Made by a program: the position numbers and the translations under genes. Positions 6,926 through 58,491 of a stretch of DNA of 59,215 bases are shown here, in pieces. How positions within the stretch are numbered: the stretch's first letter is position 1; each line of letters opens with the position of its first letter. Origin of the DNA: an uncultured Gammaproteobacteria bacterium (GTDB lineage Bacteria; Patescibacteriota; Microgenomatia; 2-02-FULL-39-11); assembly GCA_964544585.1 (NCBI GenBank), contig CAZJBV010000007.1, positions 1 through 59,215 on the forward strand, given 5' to 3'. The notes beneath the pieces were generated by a model. It searched no databases. It saw nothing but the letters and a program-made list of their open reading frames with translations, and was not told the DNA's origin.

Positions 6926-7006
6926 GATAAACGATAAGGGATAAAGGATAAAAGAGTAAATAAATATTACATTGCACTTTTATCTTTTATCTTCATATCT
7001 TTTATC
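6926..7006. repeat. Inverted GATA/TATC heptamer arrays at the trpE-trpG junction
   Basis: GATA at 6926/6933/6940/6947; TATC at 6981/6988/6996/7003. Confidence 0.8.
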
Positions 7007-8370
7007 CCTTTTCCCTGCGCCTCGCGCAGCGCCTCCTCCACCGCTTTCTGTTTATTCACTATCTCTAAAAATTCCGAAGAAGAAGTAGAGTCAGCCACAA
7101 TTCCGCTTCCTGTCTGTGTATAGGCATAGCTGCCCTTTCTAAAAAAGGAGCGGATAATAATAGCCATCATCGCCTCCTGATTAAACGAAAAATACCCTCC
7201 CACACCTCCATATGGCCCCCTCGCCTCCCCTTCTAGATTAGCTATTATTTTTAATGCCTCCACTTTTGGAGCTCCCGACAGCGTCCCGGCCGGAAAACAA
7301 GCCGAAAGTGCCGAAAAAGCATTCTCTCTTTTTTTTAATACTCCATGTATTTCCGAAAAAATATGCTGCACATGACTAAACTTTTTAATACTTGCCAATT
7401 TTTCCACTCTTATACTTCCAAATTCACAAATCCTTCCCACATCGTTTCTGGCCAGATCAACCAGCATCATATGTTCGGCCATCTCTTTCGGATCTCCCAA
7501 AAGCTTCTTTTCAAATTTTTTATCATCTTTTTCTGTCACACCTCTCCCAATCGTTCCTGCCAATGTCCCGAAGTGCTCAATTTTTTCTCCCGCAACCCTT
7601 ATCAATAGTTCAGGACTGGCAGATAAAATTTCTCTCTCTCCAAATTTAAAATACATCATATAGGGAGAAGGATTGATCTGCCGCAAAATAGCATATACTC
7701 GCCTCGTATCTCCCGATACTTTAAAATGTGTTTTTTGAGAAACAACAACCTGAAATATGTTACCTTTTCTTATCTGTTCCAAGGCTTCAAAAGTAATTCT
7801 CTCCTGCCTTTCTTTATTAACCGTTTTTAATTTACTAAAAGAAAATGATCCGATGGATGAAGGAGTATGTATTGCCTTCAAAATTTTACCCACTCTACTC
7901 TTGCCATAACTAAAATAAACGCAACTTTTTTTCTTCTTATCAAATCTGAGGCCATCCAAGAAAAGTCCCATCTCAAAATCAGGAAATTCTGGATTATGAT
8001 GCCCCACAAAAGCCTTCTCAAAATATTTTGTCGCCTCATATGAAAAATAACCTACCAGTCCTCCGCAGTATCCCTCCTTCTTTGCAGCCTTAATCCTCGC
8101 AAATTCACTCATATATTCATAAATATCTTTCACCTTTTCTCGCCTTCCATTAATTAAAAGCTCATATCCCTTCGCTGTAATTAAAAACAGTGGATCAAAG
8201 CCGATATAAGAAAATCTGTTATATTTACCTTCCTCTCCCAAACTCTCTAACAAAAACATATTTTCACACAACCCATAAAGCCGTTTAAAAGCCTCAAATG
8301 CCGAAATAGACAAATCGATTTTCTCTTCTTGATATTTCCCGAGTTTGATATCTTTGAATATGTTATCCAT
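6967..8370 (-). CDS. trpE: Anthranilate synthase component I
   Basis: FLLES, GLVGYFSYE, INPSPYM, SASPELL, EH.MLVDLARND, FPAGTLSGAPK; first gene of the trp cluster. Confidence 0.95.
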   Translation of the reverse strand: MDNIFKDIKLGKYQEEKIDLSISAFEAFKRLYGLCENMFLLESLGEEGKYNRFSYIGFDPLFLITAKGYELLINGRREKVKDIYEYMSEFARIKAAKKEGYCGGLVGYFSYEATKYFEKAFVGHHNPEFPDFEMGLFLDGLRFDKKKKSCVYFSYGKSRVGKILKAIHTPSSIGSFSFSKLKTVNKERQERITFEALEQIRKGNIFQVVVSQKTHFKVSGDTRRVYAILRQINPSPYMMYFKFGEREILSASPELLIRVAGEKIEHFGTLAGTIGRGVTEKDDKKFEKKLLGDPKEMAEHMMLVDLARNDVGRICEFGSIRVEKLASIKKFSHVQHIFSEIHGVLKKRENAFSALSACFPAGTLSGAPKVEALKIIANLEGEARGPYGGVGGYFSFNQEAMMAIIIRSFFRKGSYAYTQTGSGIVADSTSSSEFLEIVNKQKAVEEALREAQGKGIKDMKIKDKSAM

Positions 8371-10458: not shown

Positions 10459-10487
10459 TTGACAAACACCCTCTCTAATGATATTAT
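10459..10487 (+). promoter_or_regulatory. Sigma70-type promoter of the tyrosine recombinase
   Basis: TTGACA-17 nt-TATTAT, 7 nt before ATG 10495. Confidence 0.7.
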
Positions 10488-10494
10488 AGGCTCC

Positions 10495-11367
10495 ATGTCA
10501 GCAGTAAATAATGCTTCTTTAGCCTCTGCTCATGAGCTTTTTGTCAAATACCTAAACGACCAAAAACGTGCCCACGCCACCATCTTAGCATACGGCAAGG
10601 ATATCGACCAGCTCAGCAAATTCCTCCAGGATATGGGGAAAAAATCCATTGGTGAAATAGAAAAAGTCGACCTCGAAGCCTTTTTAAAAAAACTCTCCCA
10701 AGATGGCTACACTCCCAAATCGCTTTCTCGAAAAATTAATTCTATAAAAACTTTCTATCGGTTTCTCAAAAATAACACCTACGTTGACCTAAATCCGGCA
10801 GCAGAAATAAGTCACCCTAAATACGATATCAAACCTCCCCGTATTCTTTCCAAACTCGAATATCGGGCATTAAGAGATGCTTGTCGCGGCGACGAAAGAA
10901 CCTATGCCATCGTCGAACTCTTCCTCCAAACTGGTGTCAGAATTGGAGAATTAGCCAATCTCAAGTTAAAAGACATCAAAGAGACAGAACTCTATATCGA
11001 AGCTTTAGAAGGCCACCCCGCCCGCTCCGTTCCCTTAAATAAAGCCGCAATTCAGGCTCTTGATGCCTATATTAAAATCCGTCCCAGCCAAGATGATGGA
11101 GGCGCCCTATTTATTACCAAAACCGGCCGTCCCCTACTCGTCAGAAATATAAGAACCACCATCGATCGCTATTTTAAGCTCGCCGGCATCGAAAATGCTA
11201 AAGTAAACGACCTTCGCCATACATTTATTGCTCATCATCTTGCTTCAGGCACTCCCCTCACCGTCATCTCCAAACTCGTCGGCCACAAACGCTTGTCAAC
11301 CACAGAAAAATATCTCGACCTCGTCAAAGATAAAATGACCGACAACGTCAAACTCGAAGAACTATAA
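10495..11367 (+). CDS. XerC/XerD-like tyrosine recombinase
   Basis: SAM-like N-domain (TILAY..D...L..FL; SRKINSIK.FYRFL); catalytic R in TGVRIGEL, DLRHTF, LVGH, TTEKY. Confidence 0.9.
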   Translation: MSAVNNASLASAHELFVKYLNDQKRAHATILAYGKDIDQLSKFLQDMGKKSIGEIEKVDLEAFLKKLSQDGYTPKSLSRKINSIKTFYRFLKNNTYVDLNPAAEISHPKYDIKPPRILSKLEYRALRDACRGDERTYAIVELFLQTGVRIGELANLKLKDIKETELYIEALEGHPARSVPLNKAAIQALDAYIKIRPSQDDGGALFITKTGRPLLVRNIRTTIDRYFKLAGIENAKVNDLRHTFIAHHLASGTPLTVISKLVGHKRLSTTEKYLDLVKDKMTDNVKLEEL

Positions 11368-11368
11368 T

Positions 11369-11608
11369 ATGAAAAAAGAAAATATAACATGTCCAGCTGG
11401 AGTACCTATTGCCAGTGTAAGTGCACTTATCGCCCCAGAAGCACAAACTGAATTAAATTATCAATGTCAACTCGCGTGTCAAAATGGCGCAAACTGTCAA
11501 GCAAGGGGAGGTAGAGAATTTTTTATGCGGGCAAATGTAGCAGCCACAATGAGAGGTGAATTATTCTCCCCCCCTCAAACATCCCCAGGATCCACTAGCC
11601 AAGCCTAA
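11369..11608 (+). CDS. Small Cys-containing hypothetical protein
   Basis: 79-aa ORF starting 1 nt after the recombinase stop. Confidence 0.4.
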   Translation: MKKENITCPAGVPIASVSALIAPEAQTELNYQCQLACQNGANCQARGGREFFMRANVAATMRGELFSPPQTSPGSTSQA

Positions 11609-11785
11609 TTCTCTTAATATCTCCATATCTTCATATCTTTTCTCTTTTACTTGTGTGTCCGCTTGGACTTAAATCCCCTTATACAACTTCACTCTATCGT
11701 CAGCAATACCTAAGTTGTAACTCCTGAACTAGTACAGCTACTTGATAAGTATATCCATGCTATATAAAATGCAATAACCATAGGA

Positions 11786-12004
11786 ATGTTTAATATCATA
11801 AAAACAAGCGAAAAATGCCCAAAGTGCGGGAGTAAAATAGATGAATGGCAATCGAAGAATTTATCTATTAAAGGCTATCCTATTATGCAAGCTTTAATAA
11901 ATATTACTCTTGTTCCTGATATGGCTGGCGAAATGCACGCAATCTGTGATAAATGCAAAACTTGGACTGAATATAAAATCAAAAATGGGCAACTAGTAAA
12001 ATAA
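11786..12004 (+). CDS. Small zinc-ribbon protein
   Basis: CPKC ... CDKC pair. Confidence 0.6.
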   Translation: MFNIIKTSEKCPKCGSKIDEWQSKNLSIKGYPIMQALINITLVPDMAGEMHAICDKCKTWTEYKIKNGQLVK

Positions 12005-12087
12005 AACTGCGGACTCTTTACGAAAAAAATTTTTCTGAGGCTAAAGAATTGACTTTGTATTGAAATTTTTGTTAACATGAGCCTGTT

Positions 12088-12297
12088 ATGCATAGAGTGA
12101 ATACTTCTACCAAAAATATGAGCAGATATGCCGGAAAATGGGTGGCAATTTTAGGAGATCGCATTGTTGCCATTGGAGAGACGCTGAAAGAAATAGGTCC
12201 ATTTGTGACTCGCGACGTTAAAAACAAGACGCCAGACGAAAAAATTGCCGCGGCTTTCAAGGTTCCCTACAAAGGCGAGGGTCCCTACATATTGTGA
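12088..12297 (+). CDS. DUF5678-like small protein (alternative start 12118)
   Basis: YAGKWVAI.GDRIVA.GETLKE motif. Confidence 0.7.
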   Translation: MHRVNTSTKNMSRYAGKWVAILGDRIVAIGETLKEIGPFVTRDVKNKTPDEKIAAAFKVPYKGEGPYIL

Positions 12298-12692
12298 GTA
12301 AACAGTCCTCATTTGCTACTTTCAAGTACCACTACAACGGCGAAGGATATTTCCCCATAATTCCATTTTACGTATCCGTAAGCGGCAATCAACTTAAACT
12401 TCGAGCACTCATTGATTCTGGGGCAACAATTTCTGTGTTTAAAGACGAGATAGCGGAACAGCTGGAAATCGAGATAGAAAGTGGGAAAGAAATCTATTTG
12501 GGTGGAGTCGGTGGGAGAATTAGGGGATATATCCACGAGTTAAGCCTTGAAATCGTGGGTAAGAAATTTTTATGCCCGGTGGTTTTTTCCCGAGAATATA
12601 CCGTTTCCTTTAATTTACTAGGAAGGGAGGCTTTTTTTAGACAATTCAAGATTATTTTTGAAGAAAAGCAAAGTCTCTTAAAATTAGAATAA
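12294..12692 (+). CDS. Retropepsin-like (clan AA) aspartyl protease
   Basis: ALIDSGATISV catalytic DSG, GVGG flap, LLGR motif; GTG start overlaps the upstream stop. Confidence 0.85.
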   Translation: MSKQSSFATFKYHYNGEGYFPIIPFYVSVSGNQLKLRALIDSGATISVFKDEIAEQLEIEIESGKEIYLGGVGGRIRGYIHELSLEIVGKKFLCPVVFSREYTVSFNLLGREAFFRQFKIIFEEKQSLLKLE

Positions 12693-12721
12693 TTTCCGAC
12701 AATCCTTTTTCTCCAAAACTG

Positions 12722-12793
12722 TGGGCCTGCTTGGGATCGAACCAAGGACATCCAAATTATAAGTTTGGCGCTCTGCCACTGAGCTACAGGCCC
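12722..12793 (-). tRNA. tRNA-Ile(UAU); CCA not encoded
   Basis: 72-nt cloverleaf: GGGCCUG/CAGGCCC, anticodon arm CCAAA-CUUAUAA-UUUGG, T-arm CUUGG-UUCGAUC-CCAAG. Confidence 0.93.
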
Positions 12794-12800
12794 GAAACTT

Positions 12801-12833
12801 GATAGACGATAAGCGATAAAGGATAAAAGTGCA
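12801..12833. repeat. GATA heptamer array downstream of the four-helix-bundle gene
   Basis: GATA at 12801/12808/12815/12822, ending in gataaaagtgca. Confidence 0.8.
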
Positions 12834-12839
12834 GCACAA

Positions 12840-12868
12840 ATTCTAACAAATACTTACCTCCTTGACAA
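12840..12868 (-). promoter_or_regulatory. Probable promoter of tRNA-Ile, overlapping the end of the four-helix-bundle gene
   Basis: TTGTCA-17 nt-TAGAAT on the minus strand. Confidence 0.55.
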
Positions 12869-13225
12869 ATAATTCGTACTGTTTATAAGTCCTTGGAGTA
12901 AAACTCTTACCTTTTCGCTTTGCTGCCAGATTTTCTGAAAATTAGTTTCATTACAAAATTTCAAGTCTTTACTATCTATAATCTGGCTCTGAACTTCTCC
13001 TACTGAACCACGTGCGTCATAATAGAAATTCACTCTATCTTTATAATGGAACCTATAAAAACCCTCAGCTATGCAAGATTCTATAGATACTGAAGCTCTT
13101 CTTATTTGCGAAGTTAAACCATAGATTTCTGTTGAGGGAAAGTTTTTAGTAATGCCGTATATCAAAAGAGTAAGTTTATGTGCTTCTTTCCAAACTTCAA
13201 GATCAGTAAAATGCGCAATCTTCAT
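12854..13225 (-). CDS. Four-helix-bundle protein (23S rRNA IVS protein / bAvd-like fold)
   Basis: F.DL.VW..AH.L...IY..TK.FP..E.YGLTSQIRRA..SI...IAEG signature. Confidence 0.92.
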   Translation of the reverse strand: MKIAHFTDLEVWKEAHKLTLLIYGITKNFPSTEIYGLTSQIRRASVSIESCIAEGFYRFHYKDRVNFYYDARGSVGEVQSQIIDSKDLKFCNETNFQKIWQQSEKVRVLLQGLINSTNYLSRR

Positions 13226-13237
13226 TTCTCTTCTCTC

Positions 13238-13302
13238 TTATCTTTTATCATTTATCTTTTATCTCCATATCTCATATCCCTTATCTTTTATCTTCATATC
13301 TT
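13238..13302. repeat. TATC heptamer array upstream of the four-helix-bundle gene
   Basis: Nine TATC cores at 13239/46/53/60/68/75/82/89/97 (7-8 nt spacing). Confidence 0.85.
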
Positions 13303-13303
13303 C

Positions 13304-15652
13304 TTACAATTTCGCCCTCTGCTGTATCTCTGCTTCTACCAGCTCTCGTGGTCGTCCATATTTCAAACGTGACAATTGCAGTATTGCCTCCGCCACTTTC
13401 GGATTCTCCACCCTCTTCTGTGCACCCATATCTTTCCTAAGATCCACCGAAAAAGGCGGCACCGGCTTATTATTAACGATCGTATTTAAATAAGCATTAT
13501 ACACATCCACATTAATTAGATCACCCTCATTAAATACGGGTTGGTACCAGTGCTGGAGGTAATTTGCATCGGTTACACCTATTCGAAATGATACAAGCGT
13601 ACCCACATTTCCAAATACCGCATTTTTCACCTCTTCTTCCATTTGTCCAATAAATTGATTAGCAACAATCAAATTAAGCCTATATTTCCTTGCCTCCGAA
13701 AGTATCTGCGCAAAATCCGGCGTGGCAAAATTCTGAAACTCATCAACATAAAGGTAAAAATCTCTTCTTTTTTCCTCAACCATATCCTGCCTACTCATCG
13801 CCGCCACCAGAATTTTCGGCACCATTATTAAACCCAAGAAGCTCGAATTTTCCTCCCCCAGTCTTCCCTTGGCCAGGTTAATAAGTAGTATCTTACCTTC
13901 ATCCATAATTTTGCGAAAATCAAACGCAGACTTTGACTGACCAATGATATTTCTCATTAGCTTATTCGTCACAAACCGCCCAAATTTAGACACTATATAA
14001 TCCAATACCTCCGACTTATGAAAATCAGAAGTCTGTGCTATCTGATCAGTCCAGTAGCGCCTCACAATTGGATCTTGCACCTTAGGCAAAAGTTCCTGAA
14101 CATAAGCCGAATCAGTCAATACCCTCACCACCTCCACAAAAGACGTCCCAGGATCACTCATTACAGTCAGCATTGCATTCCTTATCGCATGCTCAAATCG
14201 AGGCCCAATAATACCAGTTTTTTGCGGATCATAAAGCTTATACATAAGTCCTATGATAGATGTACATACAAAGTGTTTTTGTTCCTCAGTATGCGCCTCC
14301 AGCATATTTAATCCCATCGGCCTTTCTATATCTGAAGGATCAAAATAAACCACATCCTCTGCCCTTTCGGGAGGAATAAGAGGCAAAATACCCTCCACCA
14401 AATCTCCATGCGGGTCAATCGCTGCTACCCCCTTGCCATTTTTTATATCCTGTAAAATCATGTCCTTTAATAGAACTGATTTCCCCACGCCCGTTTTTCC
14501 AATAATATATATATGCCGTCTTCTATCGTCATCGCCTATATAAACAGGTTTACTTATACCTCTATAAGTGCTTTTCCCTATATACAAACCACCGCGAGGT
14601 ATATCTGCCGGTGCCGGAGCTCTCTTTGACGTCACCCAAAATATATGCGGCGTCTCAACCGATTTATTTGGAAAATGAAATAAAGTCGCCAATTCCTCTG
14701 CTGATAGGACACTATATGGCTTCTTTACAAAAGTCACAATCGGAAAATATCGGTAAATAAAGTCGATCATAAAAGAACTTTTGAGCCTCGTTTTAACCTT
14801 GGTAAAGTTATTTAAATCAGAGGAAAATTGGGCAAAAACAGTTTCTAGGTTATGAAGATGCATTTGGGCTGATTCTTTAGAATAAGAAGAAACAACCAGC
14901 CGTATAACAGTATCAAAGCCTACTCGAGAAATTTTATTTTCAATAGATTCGAGAGTCTTTGGATCTACTTTATACTGGGCTTTTTCCGGATTTGCTTCCT
15001 GTTTTTTGACATTGGATATATAACTTCTTCCCGCCTTTTTCCACTTTCCCGAAGATGGAGAGATAATTATCTGCACCGCCGCTCCTTCGCCCTGACCCAT
15101 TTTACCAAGTGCTGATGTCAAAGACGACAATGGGTCAACAGGCAGATCCTTAAAAACCCTGATTGGATAATAGTCAGCATGCTTCAGTTTAAGTTGCGCA
15201 AATGCCACTTTCCCCTTCTCGTCAAAAATATTATACTCATCGACTTCCCGAATGTCAGCTCCCGGATACGACCCATATATCTGTTTTTCTACAAGATCAC
15301 GCAGTCTACTCGGCACCGATACATAAAATCGTATATCCCCCGGCCTGCCTACTATCTCAAACGAAATATAATCCTGCTGTGACAAAAAAGAAAACATTCC
15401 TCCACGATGCAAAGATGCAAGGGATGAAAATATCTGCTCTGCAGCATCTATTTTTATCTCATTATCCTTTGGTACTGCCACTTGAAGAAGTACAAAATCC
15501 AAGCTTTTTCTTTCCCGACTCCGGTATTTATACCACAGAAATACAATATATCCCAATATAAAAACCAAAACCCCCAATATAGAAAGTACAACAAAACTCA
15601 AGATAAATGCTTCAGTTTGTGAAATTAAAGTCCCCGAAAATTCCTCATTCAT
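13304..15652 (-). CDS. Membrane-anchored VirD4/TraG/HerA-like (DUF87) ATPase
   Basis: N-terminal TM; Walker A GKTGVGKS; IDPHGD; Walker B YVDEFQNF; EARKYRLNL..ANQ. Confidence 0.88.
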   Translation of the reverse strand: MNEEFSGTLISQTEAFILSFVVLSILGVLVFILGYIVFLWYKYRSRERKSLDFVLLQVAVPKDNEIKIDAAEQIFSSLASLHRGGMFSFLSQQDYISFEIVGRPGDIRFYVSVPSRLRDLVEKQIYGSYPGADIREVDEYNIFDEKGKVAFAQLKLKHADYYPIRVFKDLPVDPLSSLTSALGKMGQGEGAAVQIIISPSSGKWKKAGRSYISNVKKQEANPEKAQYKVDPKTLESIENKISRVGFDTVIRLVVSSYSKESAQMHLHNLETVFAQFSSDLNNFTKVKTRLKSSFMIDFIYRYFPIVTFVKKPYSVLSAEELATLFHFPNKSVETPHIFWVTSKRAPAPADIPRGGLYIGKSTYRGISKPVYIGDDDRRRHIYIIGKTGVGKSVLLKDMILQDIKNGKGVAAIDPHGDLVEGILPLIPPERAEDVVYFDPSDIERPMGLNMLEAHTEEQKHFVCTSIIGLMYKLYDPQKTGIIGPRFEHAIRNAMLTVMSDPGTSFVEVVRVLTDSAYVQELLPKVQDPIVRRYWTDQIAQTSDFHKSEVLDYIVSKFGRFVTNKLMRNIIGQSKSAFDFRKIMDEGKILLINLAKGRLGEENSSFLGLIMVPKILVAAMSRQDMVEEKRRDFYLYVDEFQNFATPDFAQILSEARKYRLNLIVANQFIGQMEEEVKNAVFGNVGTLVSFRIGVTDANYLQHWYQPVFNEGDLINVDVYNAYLNTIVNNKPVPPFSVDLRKDMGAQKRVENPKVAEAILQLSRLKYGRPRELVEAEIQQRAKL

Positions 15653-15692: not shown

Positions 15693-15711
15693 GTCCCGAT
15701 TTATTCGGGAC
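15693..15711. repeat. Palindrome of the 'cccga..tcggg' family
   Basis: gtcccga-tttat-tcgggac; relatives at 8588-8605 and 18644-18662. Confidence 0.7.
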
Positions 15712-16153
15712 TGGTACTGGGGGTATATTGCACTCGCATAATTTTTCCGTGAATTACTTTCAAAGTTAAATGTGCCTTTTTAAGCTTTCGTATACACCAT
15801 TCAGCTAACCATCGTAAAGCTGAATATACCTGCGCATGTAGTCCAGAAACAACTTGTTGATCAGAAATAGGCAGAACAATTGCCGCTTGCCCCGTTGTCG
15901 TAACTGGAGTACTTGGTCCAGATGGCGAAACCCCCATCCTTTGTAAATCAGGCGGAACTTTAACAGCTTCCTCATGTGCGTATACCCCTACTCCCTTTAC
16001 CTCTTTTGACGGCTGTAATTCAGGGGAAACTGACTGTAACACCTCTTGAGAAGAGACACCTCCGCCTAACTGCTCTTTCGCCATAGAACCTGACGGAGAA
16101 ATCGCCGCAGGTGTCTGAGATTGTTGACTATTTTGCTGGGCAGAATTATCCAT
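15701..16153 (-). CDS. Hypothetical protein (S/Q/P-rich N-terminus, conserved-looking C-terminal helix)
   Basis: ORF track 156 aa; probable start at Met 16153; C-terminal SALRWLAEWC.RKLK. Confidence 0.65.
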   Translation of the reverse strand: MDNSAQQNSQQSQTPAAISPSGSMAKEQLGGGVSSQEVLQSVSPELQPSKEVKGVGVYAHEEAVKVPPDLQRMGVSPSGPSTPVTTTGQAAIVLPISDQQVVSGLHAQVYSALRWLAEWCIRKLKKAHLTLKVIHGKIMRVQYTPSTSPE

Positions 16154-18539
16154 ACATTTGCTCCCGTACATGTATTATAGATTCAAAAGAGGAGGGAGAC
16201 AAACGGTTAGCCTTCTCATAGGAAAAAATAATTCCATAACTCGGGAATTTTTTTCCTGCCTGCCCATTCGGAAGAACGGTCTGTGGTCTCTTCTGGTTCA
16301 AGCCATTCCTCCTTAATAAAAATTCAACACTCCCTGGCTTTTTCTTCCTTTTTAAGAAATGTTTTTTCGAGAAAGTTTTAGAAACCGACTCAATTTTAAG
16401 TTGCTTAAAAATACTTTTCAGTTTGCTAATAAAATATATAATTTTCTCAAAATCACCATTAAGAGAAATTATCATTCTTCCCTTCTTCAAAAGGCTTTTC
16501 TTCTGAATACTATTTACGTTAGAAGTATAAGTTTCATATTTTCTAAAATATTTCCTCTCCATTGTAAAAATGAATTTCAATACACTCATAGTCATAATTC
16601 TTTCTTTTAGCCAACCTTTTTCTAATCGACGTATATGTTTCCGGACCATTTTTTCTATATAAACTGTAGTTTTTTTAGTAATTCTGCCTTTTTTAAAATC
16701 TCTATATTGCTTGCTTTCTTTTCCATACAAAAGTAAAATCCATCTTCTAAGCTCCCTCTTCCCCTGCAAAATAGAAGATCTATCTTTTGAAACTCGTCTC
16801 CGCATCGTCTCTAAAAATTTCAACAATTTTCGTTGAGTTCGAAGAACTCTCAACACTCTCCTTTCTCGCTTCTTTATTTCTTTTTTAATATAGTTAACAG
16901 TCTTTTCTATAAATTTATATGGATTGGTCACAAATTCCTTAAAACGCCTTTTTTCTCTTCGTATAATTGTCTTTATTAATTCTTTCTTCGGCTGCAAAAA
17001 TTTACCTCTCTCCACCTTTTCCACAGATAATCTTTCTCGTCTCTGATATCTAATTCTCTGCTTCTTTGCTTCAAGCTTGGATACAACTTTTTTACCTTCC
17101 AAAGACCCCGAGGCAAAAGCCGTAGTTATATAATTTTTCAAAAGGCGATCTTTACCTGTAGGAACTTTTCTAGCAGTAGAAATAAATATCGTCTCCTTTC
17201 TCTTCCCCTTTCTTTGACTAAATCCGTCCAAAACTTCCTGAGAGAATATTTTTAATGAAGATTTACTGAAATCTCTTTTCTTCGCTTCCTTGGGCACAAA
17301 TATACTCTGCGAAGAAATACTACCATTTCTATGTAAGGGGCGATGTGCATTATAAATTTTACCCTTTATATCAGCAATTATAGCCAATCCTACTTCTTCG
17401 GCCTTTAATTTCCCTTTTCTTGGAATTATTTCTATCCCCGCAATCTTTTGCTCTGCCAATCTCCTCCAATATCTAAATCCTCTCCCACCAGAATGACCCC
17501 GATGCCGTTTTATTGGCTTGGTCAAATCCCTAAAACCTGAGTGATAAAGCGCTATTGGCTTTTCGGCAACTGCTTTAGATCGTGATTTCACTAAAGCAAT
17601 ATTTTCCCTTTCAGTAATTTTATGTCCAGTTGTTTTTACGGCAGACTGTTCTTTTTCATCCAATTGTCTTGCCCACGTCGCCAAACTCTGTCCGATTGTT
17701 CCTAAAGCATCTTGAGTACTCTTCTCATTAAGCAATTTTTGAACTTCTTTTCTTATATATCGTTCTTGTGCTGCAATATTCCTATCCCGTATCTCCTCTG
17801 GCATTTGAGCTTCATTTATAAGACGATGAATAGTTGGAGCAAATGCCTTTCTTTCTTCAATACTCAAACGATCAACATAAGTCAAAACAACATCCTCAAG
17901 TTTAAGATCGTCCTCCCCTTTTCGGCTATCTCGGACTACGACCACGTCTTTGATATTGCCATTTCGATCATGAGTCTTACCGGAAAATGCATCCAGAAAA
18001 TTCCACATGGAATCCATATCCTTATGTTGCAATTGTAAAGAGTACAGTTCTCCAGAATCTTTACCATCGTGTCTTGCAATATACATTCGATCACTACCAT
18101 CGCCTTCGGGACTAAACCAAATTACATCGCCATTTGTTCTATAAATAGTATCTGCAATCCCACCTATTCTCTTTCGAAGTAGTCCATTTTCTTCCAAAGA
18201 ATTAATAACATCTTCATAAGATCTATTCGCTTCATGTGCAAAATATACCGTATCTTTGAGAATCTTCTCCCCTGTCACTACATCGGTAACAATAGCTTTT
18301 CCTGTCCTAAAAGGCACTTTATCAATTTTTAAACCCTGTCCCTGCTGTCTATAAAATTCATTTACTTCCGTTCTCGCATTAACAGTCAATGAATCAATCG
18401 CCTGACGCCGCGACATTACTTTATTGTTATACAATCCCTCACCAATAGCCCGAGCAGTTCTACCCACATTAAAACCATGTTTGTCCAACTTTCCTGGTAT
18501 TCCTCCTGGCATGCCCCCGGGAGCTTCTGCATTCATCAT
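16146..18539 (-). CDS. Large hypothetical protein with a very Lys/Arg-rich C-terminal half
   Basis: 797-aa open frame directly downstream of the B12 riboswitch terminator. Confidence 0.7.
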   Translation of the reverse strand: MMNAEAPGGMPGGIPGKLDKHGFNVGRTARAIGEGLYNNKVMSRRQAIDSLTVNARTEVNEFYRQQGQGLKIDKVPFRTGKAIVTDVVTGEKILKDTVYFAHEANRSYEDVINSLEENGLLRKRIGGIADTIYRTNGDVIWFSPEGDGSDRMYIARHDGKDSGELYSLQLQHKDMDSMWNFLDAFSGKTHDRNGNIKDVVVVRDSRKGEDDLKLEDVVLTYVDRLSIEERKAFAPTIHRLINEAQMPEEIRDRNIAAQERYIRKEVQKLLNEKSTQDALGTIGQSLATWARQLDEKEQSAVKTTGHKITERENIALVKSRSKAVAEKPIALYHSGFRDLTKPIKRHRGHSGGRGFRYWRRLAEQKIAGIEIIPRKGKLKAEEVGLAIIADIKGKIYNAHRPLHRNGSISSQSIFVPKEAKKRDFSKSSLKIFSQEVLDGFSQRKGKRKETIFISTARKVPTGKDRLLKNYITTAFASGSLEGKKVVSKLEAKKQRIRYQRRERLSVEKVERGKFLQPKKELIKTIIRREKRRFKEFVTNPYKFIEKTVNYIKKEIKKRERRVLRVLRTQRKLLKFLETMRRRVSKDRSSILQGKRELRRWILLLYGKESKQYRDFKKGRITKKTTVYIEKMVRKHIRRLEKGWLKERIMTMSVLKFIFTMERKYFRKYETYTSNVNSIQKKSLLKKGRMIISLNGDFEKIIYFISKLKSIFKQLKIESVSKTFSKKHFLKRKKKPGSVEFLLRRNGLNQKRPQTVLPNGQAGKKFPSYGIIFSYEKANRLSPSSFESIIHVREQMYG

Positions 18540-19251: not shown

Positions 19252-19340
19252 GATATTAAGTGCAAAAGATACTAAGATAGTAAGTGCAATATTAATTTTA
19301 TCTCTTAATATCTCAATATCCTAATATCTTAATATCTCAT
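19252..19340. repeat. Inverted GATA/TATC arrays (8-nt period) between nrdJ and pduO
   Basis: GATA at 19252/19268/19276 with taagtgca twice; TATC at 19299/19309/19317/19325/19333. Confidence 0.7.
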
Positions 19341-21734
19341 CTAACATTCCGAGTATCCACAGGCGTAGCATTTTTTGCATCCTTCCTCATAGGCTAAAGA
19401 GGCTTCCCCACACGAAGGACACAAATCAAAATCAGAAGCTGCAGCCGGCAATAACTGCTGCGTCATTACCGATACCGGTTTTACTTCCTGTTTCAGCTCT
19501 ATTTTTACCTCAGAGGAAATCTGAGAACCATTCCCATTTTTAAGGGCAAAATTAAGATGCATCGCCAAAGCCTTGGCTACAGCATCGGGCAAAGAACGCA
19601 CTCTCTTTTCCCCAAATCCCAAAGACTTCGACCCTCCAATCCCTATCAGCTGATTAAATACCTGTTTTGCCCGCTCTTTGGGCGAAAGAGGCGACGCCAC
19701 CCTCAGCATCGCTGAAATTACTCTTCCCAATGCCTCAGCCATCGCCGCCACATCAGACCCTGCCTTCCCTACATTGATAAAAACTTCCAAAGGCTCATTA
19801 TTACCATTGGTATTTATAGTCACAAATGCAGTCCCGACAGGCGTATCAATCTGGTATGTTGCCCCTGAAACCATCATTGGTCTTGGCTTAATTTCAGGTA
19901 CGACAACCGTTTCCCCGTTTGGTTTTGCCATCTGCTTTTCCTCCCTGCTTGCCCGTCCGGCAGGCGGGCCTGCCGGCAAGGCAGGCTTTTTAGCATCAGT
20001 TCTCTCCAAAACTCCAGGACGCGACCCTTCTCTCATGTAAGTCACACCCTTACAACCCAATTCATACGCCAACGTATACAATTTCTTTACATCTTCTACC
20101 GTATGATTATTAGGAGCATTAACTGTTTTTGAAATCGAGGCATCAACATGACTTTGAATCGCCGCCTGCACCTTCACATGATCCTCCGGCGTCAGATCAT
20201 TAGCCGACACAAAATATTCAGGTACTGGATCGCGAGGATTTGCCTTTTTCCATTCGTCAAACAGAGGATGATAAAGAATATGCTCTCCCAGTCGATCGCG
20301 TCTTATAAACGAAAATTCATAAACAGGTTCAATCCCCGACGTAGTCCCGGAAAGTAATGAAGTCGATCCCGTCGGTGCCTGCTGTGTCAAAATCGAGTTT
20401 CTTATCCCCCACTTCAACATTTTCTTTCTCAAAGACTCAGGCAGTTTTTTGATAAAGTAGCCTTGTAGATATTTTTTCTTATCAAACTTGGGAAAAACAC
20501 CTTTTTCTTTGGCAATTTCGATAGATGCTTCATACACCGAATCGCGAATTAGCTTATAAATTTTATCTATTACCCTAATTGACTCATCAGAACCATATCT
20601 CAATTTCATCTTAATAAGCGCATCCCCAAGTCCCATCGTTCCCACTCCAATTCTTCTTTCCCCCTCCAATTGCACTTTACGAATTTCGTCAAAAACATAT
20701 ACGTCAGCATCAACTACATTATCTTGAAATCTCACCGCCACTTTTGCCGTTTCAGATAGACCCTTGTAATCCATTTTCCCATCCTTCACAAACTGAGAAA
20801 GATTAATAGATCCCAAATTACAAACCCCCCAAGGTGGAAGTCCCTCTTCACCGCACGGATTTACACAATTTACTTTCTCCCAATACCAATTGTTAAACCA
20901 TTTATTGTATCTCTCCATAAATACCACTCCCGGTTCAGCAGATCCCCATGCCGCATCACAAATCAAATCCCACATTTTTCTTGCCGAAACTCTTTTTGTT
21001 ACCTTTACCTTTCCTCCCTTTTTCACCCATTCATCTAAATCTCCATCCCACTCGCTATCATACTTAGGATCTGAAATATCAGGAAACTTCAATTCCCATT
21101 CCGCATCTTTTTTGACTGCCGCCATAAACTTGTCAGATACACACACAGAAAGATTGGCACCAGTAATTCTAGTCAAATCCCTCTTTACCGTTATAAATTC
21201 TTCCACATCTGGATGCCAATCCCAAAGCATAAGCATTAAAGCGCCTCTCCGACTCCCCCCTTGCTGAATAATATCTTTTGTCGCAACACTAAAAAGTTCT
21301 GCCCAATTACATGGTCCCGAAGAATGTCCATTTACTTTTCGCACATATGCTCCTCTTGGTCTCAAAGATGAAAGATTTATTCCTACCCCACCACCCCTTG
21401 CCATAATCTCCACCATCTGTGAAAGCGTTTTCAATATTCCTTCCCGAGAATCATGCGGTGAAGGAATGACAAAGCAATTATAAAAAGTCACTTTTGTTCT
21501 TGTTCCCGCCCCAGCCAAAATCCGACCCCCAGGAACATACTTAAAATCTTCCATCGCTTTGTAAAACCTTTTCTCCCAAGTGTTCCTCTCACCCTTCGTC
21601 GTCTCCACTTCAGAAACTGCAGCAGCCACTCTCCTCCACATTTCTTCCGGAGTCTTTTCCACAGGCTGTCCTTTATCGTTTTTGAGTGCATAGCGGTCAA
21701 GAAAAACTTGTTCCCGTATTCCAGTAAGTTTCAT
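19341..21734 (-). CDS. nrdJ: Class II (AdoCbl-dependent) ribonucleotide reductase with C-terminal TSCPD/Zn-ribbon region
   Basis: PGGRILAG, YNCFV, GGGVG.NLS.LRP, NPCGE, CNLGSINL, APTGS, ISKTVN, terminal CPSC...C..CGYSEC. Confidence 0.95.
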   Translation of the reverse strand: MKLTGIREQVFLDRYALKNDKGQPVEKTPEEMWRRVAAAVSEVETTKGERNTWEKRFYKAMEDFKYVPGGRILAGAGTRTKVTFYNCFVIPSPHDSREGILKTLSQMVEIMARGGGVGINLSSLRPRGAYVRKVNGHSSGPCNWAELFSVATKDIIQQGGSRRGALMLMLWDWHPDVEEFITVKRDLTRITGANLSVCVSDKFMAAVKKDAEWELKFPDISDPKYDSEWDGDLDEWVKKGGKVKVTKRVSARKMWDLICDAAWGSAEPGVVFMERYNKWFNNWYWEKVNCVNPCGEEGLPPWGVCNLGSINLSQFVKDGKMDYKGLSETAKVAVRFQDNVVDADVYVFDEIRKVQLEGERRIGVGTMGLGDALIKMKLRYGSDESIRVIDKIYKLIRDSVYEASIEIAKEKGVFPKFDKKKYLQGYFIKKLPESLRKKMLKWGIRNSILTQQAPTGSTSLLSGTTSGIEPVYEFSFIRRDRLGEHILYHPLFDEWKKANPRDPVPEYFVSANDLTPEDHVKVQAAIQSHVDASISKTVNAPNNHTVEDVKKLYTLAYELGCKGVTYMREGSRPGVLERTDAKKPALPAGPPAGRASREEKQMAKPNGETVVVPEIKPRPMMVSGATYQIDTPVGTAFVTINTNGNNEPLEVFINVGKAGSDVAAMAEALGRVISAMLRVASPLSPKERAKQVFNQLIGIGGSKSLGFGEKRVRSLPDAVAKALAMHLNFALKNGNGSQISSEVKIELKQEVKPVSVMTQQLLPAAASDFDLCPSCGEASLAYEEGCKKCYACGYSEC
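19944..19985. repeat. 42-bp nested 'PAGRQ' element, in frame in nrdJ
   Basis: cctgcttgcccgtccggcaggcgggcctgccggcaaggcagg; removing it gives KKEEK. Confidence 0.88.
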
Positions 21735-57179: not shown

Positions 57180-57599
57180 TCAGCTATCTAAAGCACGATT
57201 GACCAACCGATCGGCTTCCCAATTTTTTTCTCTTGGTATAAAAGTATAAGAAACATTTCCACCTACTTCCTGTTCCAGCTCCCTTATCTTTACCAATAGT
57301 TCCCGCAGCTTTGCCTCCTTCACTTTAAATAGTCCATTCAATTGATTAACTACCAAATTTGAATCAAGAAAAAAATTCTTTTTTGTCTCATTGGAAAATT
57401 GGAAAATTGGAAAATTGCTTTTTATCCACTTTAAAGCTTCTCTCACCGCCGTATATTCGGCCACATTATTAGTCGTCTCCCCAATTCTTTTCCCAATCTC
57501 TTTTATCTTGTATCCTTTATCATCCTTCACTACCACCCCAATTGCCCCCGGCCCCGGATTCCCCCTCGCCCCTCCATCAGTAAAAACTAAAAGTTGCAT
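57180..57599 (-). CDS. rnhA: Ribonuclease HI family protein
   Basis: FTDGGARGNPGPG, TNNVAEY.A, LDSNLVVNQL.G.FKVK, IPRE.NWEADRL.N.ALD. Confidence 0.92.
   Translation of the reverse strand: MQLLVFTDGGARGNPGPGAIGVVVKDDKGYKIKEIGKRIGETTNNVAEYTAVREALKWIKSNFPIFQFSNETKKNFFLDSNLVVNQLNGLFKVKEAKLRELLVKIRELEQEVGGNVSYTFIPREKNWEADRLVNRALDS
57390..57417. repeat. 8-bp tandem repeat (attggaaa x3.5) inside rnhA
   Basis: attggaaa attggaaa attggaaa attg; encodes SNFPIFQFSN. Confidence 0.85.
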
Positions 57600-57634: not shown

Positions 57635-57898
57635 ATGCTAAATTGGAATGTCGATGAAAAGCGAACAAAAAAAGAAGATCCCGAGGGATACAAACTATGG
57701 AGATTGGAACAACTTCTCAATTATGGCTTCGAAAAAGGCGAAATAGATATAAATGAACTTAAAAAAAGTTGGCCTAAAATAAAACATAATATCGATCCCT
57801 ACATAGCCAGGTTTACTGAATTTCTCTTATGGGGAAAACTATACTCACTTCCAGACAATTTAAATTCCTGGAACTGGCCGCCAAGGAAAAAGAAATAA
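57635..57898 (+). CDS. Small partner protein of the AbiEii-like toxin (putative antitoxin)
   Basis: 87 aa, 'WRLEQLLNYG' motif; overlaps the downstream gene. Confidence 0.65.
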   Translation: MLNWNVDEKRTKKEDPEGYKLWRLEQLLNYGFEKGEIDINELKKSWPKIKHNIDPYIARFTEFLLWGKLYSLPDNLNSWNWPPRKKK

Positions 57899-58491
57899 TA
57901 CGCTGGTATTATCTCACAGGCGGCACAGCCTTGGCAGAATTTTTCTTAAAACATCGTCTATCCGATGATATTGACCTATTCACCACCTCAGATGTAAATG
58001 ATCTCGAGACGGATAAAATTATAAAAAAAGCACTGGAAGTCCTCAATGCAAAAAAGTTTACCAAAAGGAAAATTTCAGGCCTCTATACCTACCAACTCAT
58101 CTTTGCCGACGGATCGATTCTTAAAATAGACTTCAACAATTACCCATTCAAACAGATTGAACGTGGCCTAAAGTGGAGAGGTCTCAACATTGACAGCTAT
58201 TATGATATCGCAGTCAACAAAGTCAATACCATTCTTGGAAGACTTCAAATCAGAGATTTTATCGATCTTTATTTTATGTTGAGAGAAGAATATTTTTCTT
58301 TAGAACAACTGATTACTAGGACAGAAGACAAATTCAATATCAAAGTTGATCAATATTATCTTGCCAGCCAATTCTTTAAAATAATCGATTTTCCTAGGGT
58401 TTATCCCAAAATGCTCAAACCCTTCTCCTTTGAAAAAATTCAGGAGTTTTTCAAAAAGGAAGCCAAACGTTTAGGTAAAAGCTCTTTATAA
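57829..58491 (+). CDS. AbiEii-like nucleotidyltransferase (type IV TA toxin family)
   Basis: YLTGGTALAEFFL.HRLS.DIDLF, IAVNK...I.GR...RDFIDLY. Confidence 0.88.
   Translation: MGKTILTSRQFKFLELAAKEKEIIRWYYLTGGTALAEFFLKHRLSDDIDLFTTSDVNDLETDKIIKKALEVLNAKKFTKRKISGLYTYQLIFADGSILKIDFNNYPFKQIERGLKWRGLNIDSYYDIAVNKVNTILGRLQIRDFIDLYFMLREEYFSLEQLITRTEDKFNIKVDQYYLASQFFKIIDFPRVYPKMLKPFSFEKIQEFFKKEAKRLGKSSL

Follow-up and report, generated by a model that had tools for sequence, protein, structure and literature searches.

The intervening sequences (IVSs) of bacterial ribosomal RNA occur with and without a gene. IVSs of the latter kind, without an open reading frame (ORF), are found sporadically in the 23S rRNA of Salmonella, Yersinia and Campylobacter as short, extended, gene-free hairpins. 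The 23S IVS of Coxiella burnetii holds an S23p ORF inside a stem of 28 bp, and RNase III cleaves it at the first repeat; its 5' arm consists of three copies of GACAGAT plus one degenerate copy directly before the ORF, the heptamer copy number differs between strains, and the ORF appears to be unexpressed and decaying (PMC4990558). In the candidate phyla radiation (CPR), insertions in both 16S and 23S rRNA encode 23S_rRNA_IVP (PMC11270868). Here we describe a four-helix-bundle (4HB) gene of the same protein family, PF05635, which lies outside rRNA and is enclosed by inverted arrays of 7-8-nt repeats at positions 12801-13302 of contig CAZJBV010000007.1 (assembly GCA_964544585.1; this stretch of 59,215 nt is referred to as the window). 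The host is a Patescibacteria/Microgenomates-type organism. Comparison with homologous loci suggests that this locus represents a widespread, barely described insertion cassette found across many bacterial phyla.

Short tandem repeats and hairpins of related form are known from other settings. The short tandemly repeated repetitive (STRR) heptamers of cyanobacteria, reportedly described by Mazel et al. in 1990, are tandem heptamers in the intergenic DNA of heterocyst-forming cyanobacteria and are defined by taxon and by specific heptamers. In the early mRNA of phage T7, intercistronic hairpins are cut by RNase III to yield individual, stabilised mRNAs. TAACTGA-type direct repeats are intergenic, are often positioned just before start codons and show a patchy, horizontal-looking distribution in Beggiatoaceae, Cyanobacteria and Bacteroidetes; the paper that describes them sees 'no mechanism evident' for it and mentions neither S23 nor a four-helix bundle (MacGregor 2015, PMC4679880). 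Heptamer arrays with no known protein partner have been reported from cyanobacteria, Beggiatoaceae, Bacteroidetes and Xanthomonas (PMC4679880, PMC4692102). In REPIN-RAYT systems, RAYT is an HUH/Y1 transposase and the repetitive extragenic palindromes (REPs) are palindromes of ~20 nt (Bertels & Rainey 2011, PMC3116915). In the diversity-generating retroelement (DGR) of Bordetella phage BPP-1, the Avd protein binds to an RNA stem-loop; the template is closed by a duplex, itself required, between the sequences on either side of it (bioRxiv 10.1101/2023.10.23.563531).

The cassette in the window is located between two host genes, and the ATPase gene, the 4HB gene and the tRNA-Ile gene are all on the minus strand:

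13304-15652, minus strand: gene for a VirD4/TraD-like ATPase of 782 aa, the host gene upstream of the cassette
13226-13303, minus strand: 5' arm, nine GATA-core units of 7-8 nt (GATATGAA, GATAAAA, GATAAGG and similar)
12854-13225, minus strand: 4HB gene, 123 aa, PF05635/TIGR02436
12831-12853, minus strand: spacer of 23 nt from the stop codon to the 3' arm
12801-12830, minus strand: 3' arm, four units (TTTTATC, CTTTATC, GCTTATC, GTCTATC)
12721-12793, minus strand: tRNA-Ile with anticodon TAT, the host gene downstream of the cassette

On the plus strand, positions 12801-12830 read GATAGAC GATAAGC GATAAAG GATAAAAG, which gives four GATA cores with a period of 7 nt, and a core-spacing scan located nine TATC cores, 7-8 nt apart, at 13239-13300. 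Tandem Repeats Finder (TRF) called 13227-13306 with a period of 7 and 11 copies. The arrangement claimed in a sequence-only reading of this DNA, nine TATC and four GATA cores bracketing a four-helix-bundle gene, is confirmed by the letters themselves, and the two scans agree. The 5' arm immediately abuts the stop codon of the ATPase gene (13304-13306) and its inner end lies ~10 nt from the ATG; the 3' arm stops 7 nt short of the tRNA-Ile gene, and the end of the spacer, beside the first 3'-arm unit, carries an inner TGCAC motif. The same reading placed the gene between an ATPase and a tRNA with neither rRNA nor a reverse transcriptase, and this agrees with the Rfam scan, which returned two tRNAs and no rRNA in the window, and with the neighbouring gene calls: ATPase, tRNA-Ile, a DUF5678 protein, an aspartyl protease and an integrase surround the 4HB gene, there is no reverse transcriptase near it, and the sole RVT_3/RNase H-like ORF is 44 kb distant.

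This layout resembles an rRNA IVS in several respects. As in the IVSs of C. burnetii and Leptospira, a PF05635 protein is encoded in the loop and terminal inverted repeats form the stem; the element lies inside the host transcript in the same orientation and has a sporadic, horizontally transferred distribution. As in the Coxiella IVS, a tandem heptamer-type 5' arm, here of nine 7-8-nt units, stands just before the ORF. The analogy with IVSs, first drawn from the letters alone, is strengthened by the tandem heptamers and the RNase III cut described for Coxiella (PMC4990558). On the other hand, the host of the element in the window is an mRNA/tRNA unit rather than rRNA, its arms are longer arrays (nine and four units), its ORF is under purifying selection, unlike that of Coxiella, and RNase III cleavage is here proposed by analogy.

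The association of arms and gene was surveyed in homologous loci, 32 from species-representative genomes and 80 from metagenomes, which were recruited by two conserved peptides of one PF05635 subfamily; other subfamilies are represented through six plasmid loci, many of the loci are related, so that counts are not independent events, and the taxonomy of metagenome-assembled genomes (MAGs) is given as deposited. A flank-complement score of at least 26 was reached by 62 of the 76 distinct 4HB genes that have 100 nt or more of flank at either end (82%), compared with 6 of 157 other ORFs from the same loci (3.8%; Mann-Whitney p=4e-25), a ~20-fold enrichment of arms around 4HB genes over neighbouring ORFs. 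An absence of such arrays from homologous genes, which would have told against the sequence-only reading, was thus not what the survey showed, and finished plasmids of cultured cyanobacteria and Riemerella have the arrays too. The high-scoring controls lay between two adjacent cassettes or, in one case, encoded a further divergent PF05635 paralogue. Other gene types as cargo of the arms were considered and rejected, since those enclosed were mostly ordinary genes between neighbouring cassettes and one was this third, divergent paralogue. A typical arm has about 3.5-4 units, with the 5' arm ending ~14 nt before the ATG and the 3' arm starting ~12 nt past the stop codon, and the surveyed arms give stems of ~24-30 bp, matching the 28-bp stem of the Coxiella IVS.

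The repeat unit differs between lineages (GATATTAA, GATACTAA, GATAAAG, GCGCAAAA, GAGAAAA, GAGACTAA, GGTTAA/GGTTGA, TAGAATT, GCGTTAATA, AATTAAC and others), and the two arms of one gene always consist of one unit in opposite orientations. A gene with inverted tandem-repeat arms was seen in Patescibacteria, Omnitrophota, Nitrospirota, Elusimicrobia, Cyanobacteria and Bacteroidota, and none of the homologue loci L001-L129 has an ORF-free, rRNA-like context. On finished plasmids, clean inverted arms were present at four of the six loci examined (cyanobacteria and Riemerella): plasmid cassettes of Nostoc punctiforme (pNPUN01, 1617-1982 of the record) and Trichormus variabilis have TCAGGAG/TCAGAAT opposite CTCCTGA, Picosynechococcus PCC 7003 has GGAGATAA opposite TCTCCTTA, and Riemerella has GGTTTAA/GGTTCAA opposite AACCTTG. 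The identical cassette, arms included, was recovered on six contigs, one from an NCBI assembly (L124) and five from as many sequencing runs (L125-L129), and no variation in arm copy number was found among these six contigs, which encode an identical protein. Many of the closest 4HB homologues are on contigs of ~0.9-1.1 kb, as would be consistent with short-read assemblies breaking at the repeat arms, and the repeats probably fragment metagenome assemblies.

Like STRR and TAACTGA repeats, the arrays are head-to-tail 7-nt intergenic units that form hairpins when inverted, and the Nostoc and Trichormus cassettes carry heptamer arms of just this NNNCTGA / TCAGNNN type. Unlike those repeats, the arrays described here form an inverted pair around a PF05635 gene, with a unit that tracks the protein clade. 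Compared with STRRs, the repeat form in the window is the same, and PF05635 genes of cyanobacteria have arms of this kind, but the host is of the Patescibacteria/Microgenomates type. A CRISPR array was considered and rejected, because the units are 7-8 nt long, head to tail and without spacers, compared with CRISPR repeats of 23-50 nt.

The MAGs that encode proteins with GGTTRA arms bear the labels Omnitrophota, Nitrospirota, Elusimicrobia, Deltaproteobacteria and Proteobacteria, and across these at least five named phyla the proteins are mutually 63-100% identical (median 74%). Proteins of the GATA class, from Patescibacteria, share 52-100% identity (median 65.5%), whereas identity between the two classes is only 35-53%. 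Moreover, on a 175-kb contig (L079, 1663-4480), PF05635 cassettes and host genes, three of each, take turns along a single co-directional operon, and the three paralogues, all within 3 kb, have one unit each: AATTAAC, GGTTAAGG and a GTCACAC-like unit. The class identities across phyla and the three units of this operon therefore show that the unit tracks the protein clade and not the host, and we infer that the gene and its arms are acquired, lost and passed on together. An independent distribution of arrays and gene, which would have spoken against a connection between them, was found in part: gene-less hairpins and solo arrays do exist, but the unit follows the clade and the arms hug the ORF. 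At another locus, which contains three 4HB genes (L111), arrays are nested, and at 1210-2227 outer GTTCAA/GTTCGA-type arrays enclose inner GCGTTAATA-type arrays, which in turn enclose a 4HB gene.

The encoded protein matches PF05635 over residues 8-111 of 123 (E=2e-33, 115.2 bits vs a cut-off of 33.8) and TIGR02436 (E=1e-29, 102.6 bits vs a cut-off of 24); PF05635, a family of ~16,000 clusters at 50% identity, is the sole domain found by Pfam, and there is no catalytic domain. Its AlphaFold2 model (pLDDT 93.4) has helices at residues 8-26, 37-57, 61-87 and 93-122, and Foldseek aligned it with 2GSC (TM 0.87, rmsd 0.7) and 2RLD (TM 0.83). It also has the same fold as Avd, which is a pentameric barrel (4DWL, 8UB7; TM about 0.8), at ~9% sequence identity, and the solved relatives 2GSC, 2RLD and 4DWL are each listed with five chains. 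A DGR was nonetheless rejected as an explanation, as neither a reverse transcriptase nor a template/variable repeat pair or target gene is present near the 4HB gene. Compared with its homologues, the gene has non-synonymous differences (pN) of 0.19-0.26 and synonymous differences (pS) of 0.67-0.89, which indicates a functional protein under purifying selection. The GATA core is kept in the non-coding arms while synonymous sites are saturated, and its persistence beyond this point suggests that the sequence of the unit is itself constrained by more than pairing.

The same repeat unit recurs without a gene elsewhere in the window. Arrays of at least three GATA/TATC cores at 7-8-nt spacing number seven, compared with 0.055 expected from 200 first-order Markov simulations, the maximum of which was two arrays. 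The two gene-less inverted arrays and the half array already noticed in the letters proved to be real:

6926-7006, no strand assigned: gene-less hairpin of four GATA units, a 24-nt loop and four TATC units, between trpE and trpG
19252-19340, no strand assigned: gene-less hairpin of the same GATA/TATC repeat, at the ribonucleotide reductase (RNR)/adenosyltransferase junction
11612-11640, no strand assigned: solo (half) array, three TATC units with an 8-nt period, between tRNA-Ile and the integrase gene

Both hairpins separate functionally coupled cistrons (trpE/trpG and RNR/adenosyltransferase) and share the unit and an inner GCAC motif with the gene-bearing cassette, and the GCACTTTTATC junction of the cassette spacer recurs in the hairpin at 6926-7006. 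The GATA arm of the latter codes for the final 14 residues of TrpE (…GKGIKDMKIKDKSAM, followed by the stop; 6970-7011, minus strand), and the trpG start codon is 6 nt beyond its other arm; the hairpin insertion seems to have taken the place of the former trpE end. The two hairpins can be compared with the ORF-less IVSs of Salmonella, Yersinia and Campylobacter as their counterparts, except that those are found in rRNA helices and these between trp and nrd cistrons, one of them overlapping the end of trpE. A single gene flanked by cognate repeats, together with dispersed gene-less inverted copies in intergenic DNA, also recalls REPIN-RAYT systems, from which the present element differs in that the 4HB protein is not an HUH/Y1 (IS200-like) transposase and the repeats are arrays of 6-8-nt units. 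One of the seven arrays, at 57504-57521 (a weak TATC x3 at 57499-57521), is inside an RNase H/RVT_3-like ORF (57180-57599) and may be due to chance. The same ORF contains a perfect ATTGGAAA x3.5 repeat at 57388-57419 and adjoins a gene for an AbiEii-type nucleotidyltransferase toxin (57829-58491).

Orthologous junctions were found both filled and empty. In the five closest relatives of the ATPase (L119-L123; 87-91% identity over the C-terminal 382 aa), the tRNA-Ile gene follows ~50 nt past the ATPase gene, and this site has neither a 4HB gene nor GATA arrays. Cassettes with various units occupy exactly the same site in at least 25 less closely related genomes of Microgenomates (72-83% ATPase identity), and 4HB identity tracks ATPase identity loosely, a weak and noisy relation inspected by eye. 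Likewise, the junction occupied by the hairpin at 19252-19340 is without a hairpin in L130 and L132-L135, where only 2-30 nt are present. In L131 (3829-3949) the RNR/adenosyltransferase junction contains a 120-nt hairpin of different, AATTAACCT-type units: another repeat family has inserted independently into the same intercistronic site. Judged by these filled and empty junctions, the cassette and the gene-less hairpins behave as insertions into intercistronic spacers, and the earlier suggestion of a mobile family with autonomous and non-autonomous members gains support for the cassette and a gene-less hairpin alike. By the criteria used for miniature inverted-repeat transposable elements and insertion sequences, inverted ends are present and a transposase is absent, and inspection by eye of filled against empty junctions revealed no target-site duplication. 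The XerC/D-like integrase of the window (10459-11367) was rejected as the recombinase of the cassette, as the same integrase is found beside the empty sites in L119-L123. Two of the cassette-free ATPase-tRNA spacers (L119, 4847-4878; L123, 4855-4886) contain a solo ATTTTCA x4 array overlapping a TATAAT-like box.

The arms also have a fixed polarity relative to the gene and to transcription of the host. The nearest upstream ORF is co-oriented with the 4HB gene in 62 of 68 cases, and the distance from its stop codon to the 4HB start has a median of 52 nt, essentially the arm alone; the cassette in the window offers no space for a promoter of its own except the arm. Across unrelated units, purines predominate in the 5' arm of 57 of 59 cases (p=6e-15), and flank duplexes are more stable on the sense strand (-50.6 kcal/mol) than on the antisense strand (-43.8 kcal/mol; p=0.003). 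These data are suggestive of an RNA-specific signal in the arms. That the arms in the window could pair, as had been proposed, is supported by complementarity of 86% over 22 nt and by a best arm-arm RNA duplex of -26.1 kcal/mol, compared with -16.6 +/- 2.7 kcal/mol with shuffled 3' arms. The arms are closed in the minimum free energy (MFE) and centroid folds of the 517-nt element alike. With nine units in the 5' arm and four in the 3' arm, two nearly isoenergetic registers are available, a distal one (-23.3 kcal/mol) and a proximal one (-21.3 kcal/mol), one of which would be predicted to leave the ribosome-binding region exposed and the other to cover it.

Weighing these observations, we lean towards the view that the element is probably an IVS-type cassette outside rRNA, which RNase III would excise from read-through transcripts. 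Read-through from the upstream ATPase gene would transcribe the cassette, and in the transcript the purine-rich 5' arm and the pyrimidine-rich 3' arm would form a duplex of ~24-30 bp, for which several registers would be possible because the arms are repetitive. RNase III would then cut the arm duplex, as it does in the 23S rRNA IVSs of the same protein family, and the cut would free a small mRNA and part the flanking RNAs, rendering the insertion harmless. The gene-less hairpins would correspond to ORF-less IVSs. Processing of hairpins between cistrons is also what happens at the RNase III sites of phage T7, although those are local, enclose no gene and have no tandem-repeat arrays.

Several points weigh against excision of the cassette at the RNA level. 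Arm mismatches show no asymmetry between G-U (148) and A-C (130), and without a G-U excess, selection specifically on RNA pairing is not demonstrated; the complementarity of the arms could be a by-product of arraying one unit in opposite orientations. The fold of the whole element has no extra stability over shuffled sequences (z=-0.58), and the stems are rich in AU pairs and have a modest folding energy. The 59-kb window showed no RNase III signature, a result that is uninformative on the rest of the genome, and both the co-transcription of the cassette and its cleavage by RNase III are what we infer rather than observe. A promoter-like TTGTCA-17-TAGAAT sequence with an extended TG lies at 12868-12840 (minus strand), at the 3' end of the 4HB ORF and before the 3' arm, and could give tRNA transcripts with the 3' arm alone; this match was not above chance in the scan, and in cassette-less relatives a promoter-like sequence is present within the short ATPase-tRNA spacer. 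About 18% of the 76 homologues are without clean inverted arms, and the arrays on two of the six plasmids (Nostoc 7120 gamma and Gemmatirosa) are not cleanly inverted. Finally, the Coxiella ORF appears to be decaying, whereas the ORF described here is under purifying selection; the RNase III model alone leaves retention of the protein unexplained.

With regard to the protein, the most economical hypothesis is that it binds its own repeat arms, which we propose because unit and clade are co-inherited, an arm has ~4-5 units, relatives of the protein are pentameric and Avd binds RNA; such binding may serve regulation, protection or movement. A broader proposal, which we offer tentatively as a possibility, is that the PF05635 family as a whole may be the cargo of phylum-spanning cassettes that have neither promoter nor transposase and whose arms would be recognised by a pentamer with about one subunit per repeat; IVSs, Avd and the STRR, TAACTGA and GGGAATC heptamers of cyanobacteria, Beggiatoaceae, Bacteroidetes and Xanthomonas would then be special cases, domestications or orphaned arms.

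An alternative that we regard as unlikely, yet one to be taken seriously, is a mobile element acting at the DNA level, in which the inverted arrays would be multi-site terminal repeats, an oligomer of the 4HB protein would bridge both ends and RNA pairing would be incidental. Its movement could depend on a recombinase of the host or on homologous recombination of the arms with gene-less hairpins serving as landing pads, and the subterminal repeats of En/Spm and the multi-site ends of Tn7 and Mu provide parallels. It would account as well as the IVS reading does for filled and empty sites of both cassette and hairpin and for the co-segregation of unit and protein clade across phyla and among the paralogues of one operon. 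The core motif conserved past synonymous saturation is not required by pairing, the gene-less hairpins share unit and inner GCAC motif with the filled element, arm mismatches lack a G-U excess, and many homologues sit on ~1-kb contigs, as assembly-breaking repeats would. However, the protein is a 123-aa helical bundle with no catalytic domain, no target-site duplication was recognised, and the nearby tyrosine recombinase, also present beside empty sites, is not linked to the cassette. No close relative was found on viral contigs. The strong polarity of the arms (57/59) and the co-orientation with the upstream gene (62/68) would be unexpected for a purely double-stranded DNA element.

We consider it very unlikely that the arrays are generic intergenic repeats, that is, STRR/REP-like hairpins that stabilise or punctuate operon mRNAs, at which 4HB genes merely land or persist. 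Most arrays in the window are away from the 4HB gene, both gene-less hairpins lie between coupled cistrons, the fetched loci contain many other short-period arrays of unrelated units, and partnerless heptamer arrays are documented (PMC4679880, PMC4692102). Yet generic repeats would leave unexplained why the unit tracks the protein clade, with GGTTRA in at least five phyla and three units at three paralogues within 3 kb, why arrays are enriched ~20-fold around the gene and why the polarity of the arms is fixed relative to the ORF; as a weaker point, ~29 kb from four distinct cassette-less loci of close relatives have no GATA arrays. Chance resemblance or an assembly artefact has a negligible probability despite the metagenome-type assembly, in which repeats can be misassembled, given seven arrays against 0.055 expected, the identical cassette on six contigs and the like arms on finished plasmids of cultured strains, which rule out an artefact.

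The surroundings of the cassette differ in how well they are conserved. The tRNA-Ile(TAT) gene, whose TAT (UAU) anticodon is unusual among bacteria, is kept downstream of the VirD4-like ATPase gene in all Microgenomates loci inspected (including L119, L120, L122 and L123). The stretch from tRNA-Ile to the integrase (11369-12692), which is variable in content among relatives, holds in the window the DUF5678 gene with a gene for a retropepsin-like aspartyl protease immediately after it, as well as a 72-aa ORF with CxxC pairs and the solo array; in L122 and L123 the integrase is within ~40 nt of the tRNA. Upstream of the ATPase gene, an ORF of 797 aa (16146-18539) and one of 156 aa (15701-16171) have no Pfam match. 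The order of large ORF, ~150-aa ORF and ATPase is conserved in L119-L122, and L123 has two extra genes between the large and the ~150-aa ORF. Beside the hairpin at 19252-19340, the class II RNR of the window (19341-21734, 797 aa) has no intein domains; some of its close homologues (P0398, P0460, P0465) are ~1140-1160 aa long and contain the intein domains PF14528 and PF14890.

In Picosynechococcus PCC 7003 the cassette (L115, 126543-126899 of the plasmid record) lies in a type III-B CRISPR operon, where it separates cas10/cmr2 from cmr3. A CRISPR association of '23S rRNA IVP' is listed in PMC10910872, and operon insertions such as this one, together with the repeat arms, may account for it. 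Pipelines that look for arrays or rely on guilt by association can be misled by cassettes within operons, those of type III-B CRISPR included.

IVS elements, the PF05635 family, the STRR heptamers of cyanobacteria and TAACTGA-type direct repeats are already known. In the full-text literature, a scope with most subscription journals outside it, we found no statement of inverted tandem-repeat arms around PF05635 genes outside rRNA and none that the repeat unit follows the PF05635 protein clade. The finding would link three puzzles, namely the role of the very abundant 4HB proteins outside DGRs, the origin of rRNA IVSs and the existence of heptamer-rich bacterial genomes. Cultivable carriers exist in Nostoc, Picosynechococcus and Riemerella (R. 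anatipestifer), and IVSs, orphan four-helix-bundle genes and short tandem intergenic repeats are brought into one testable framework.

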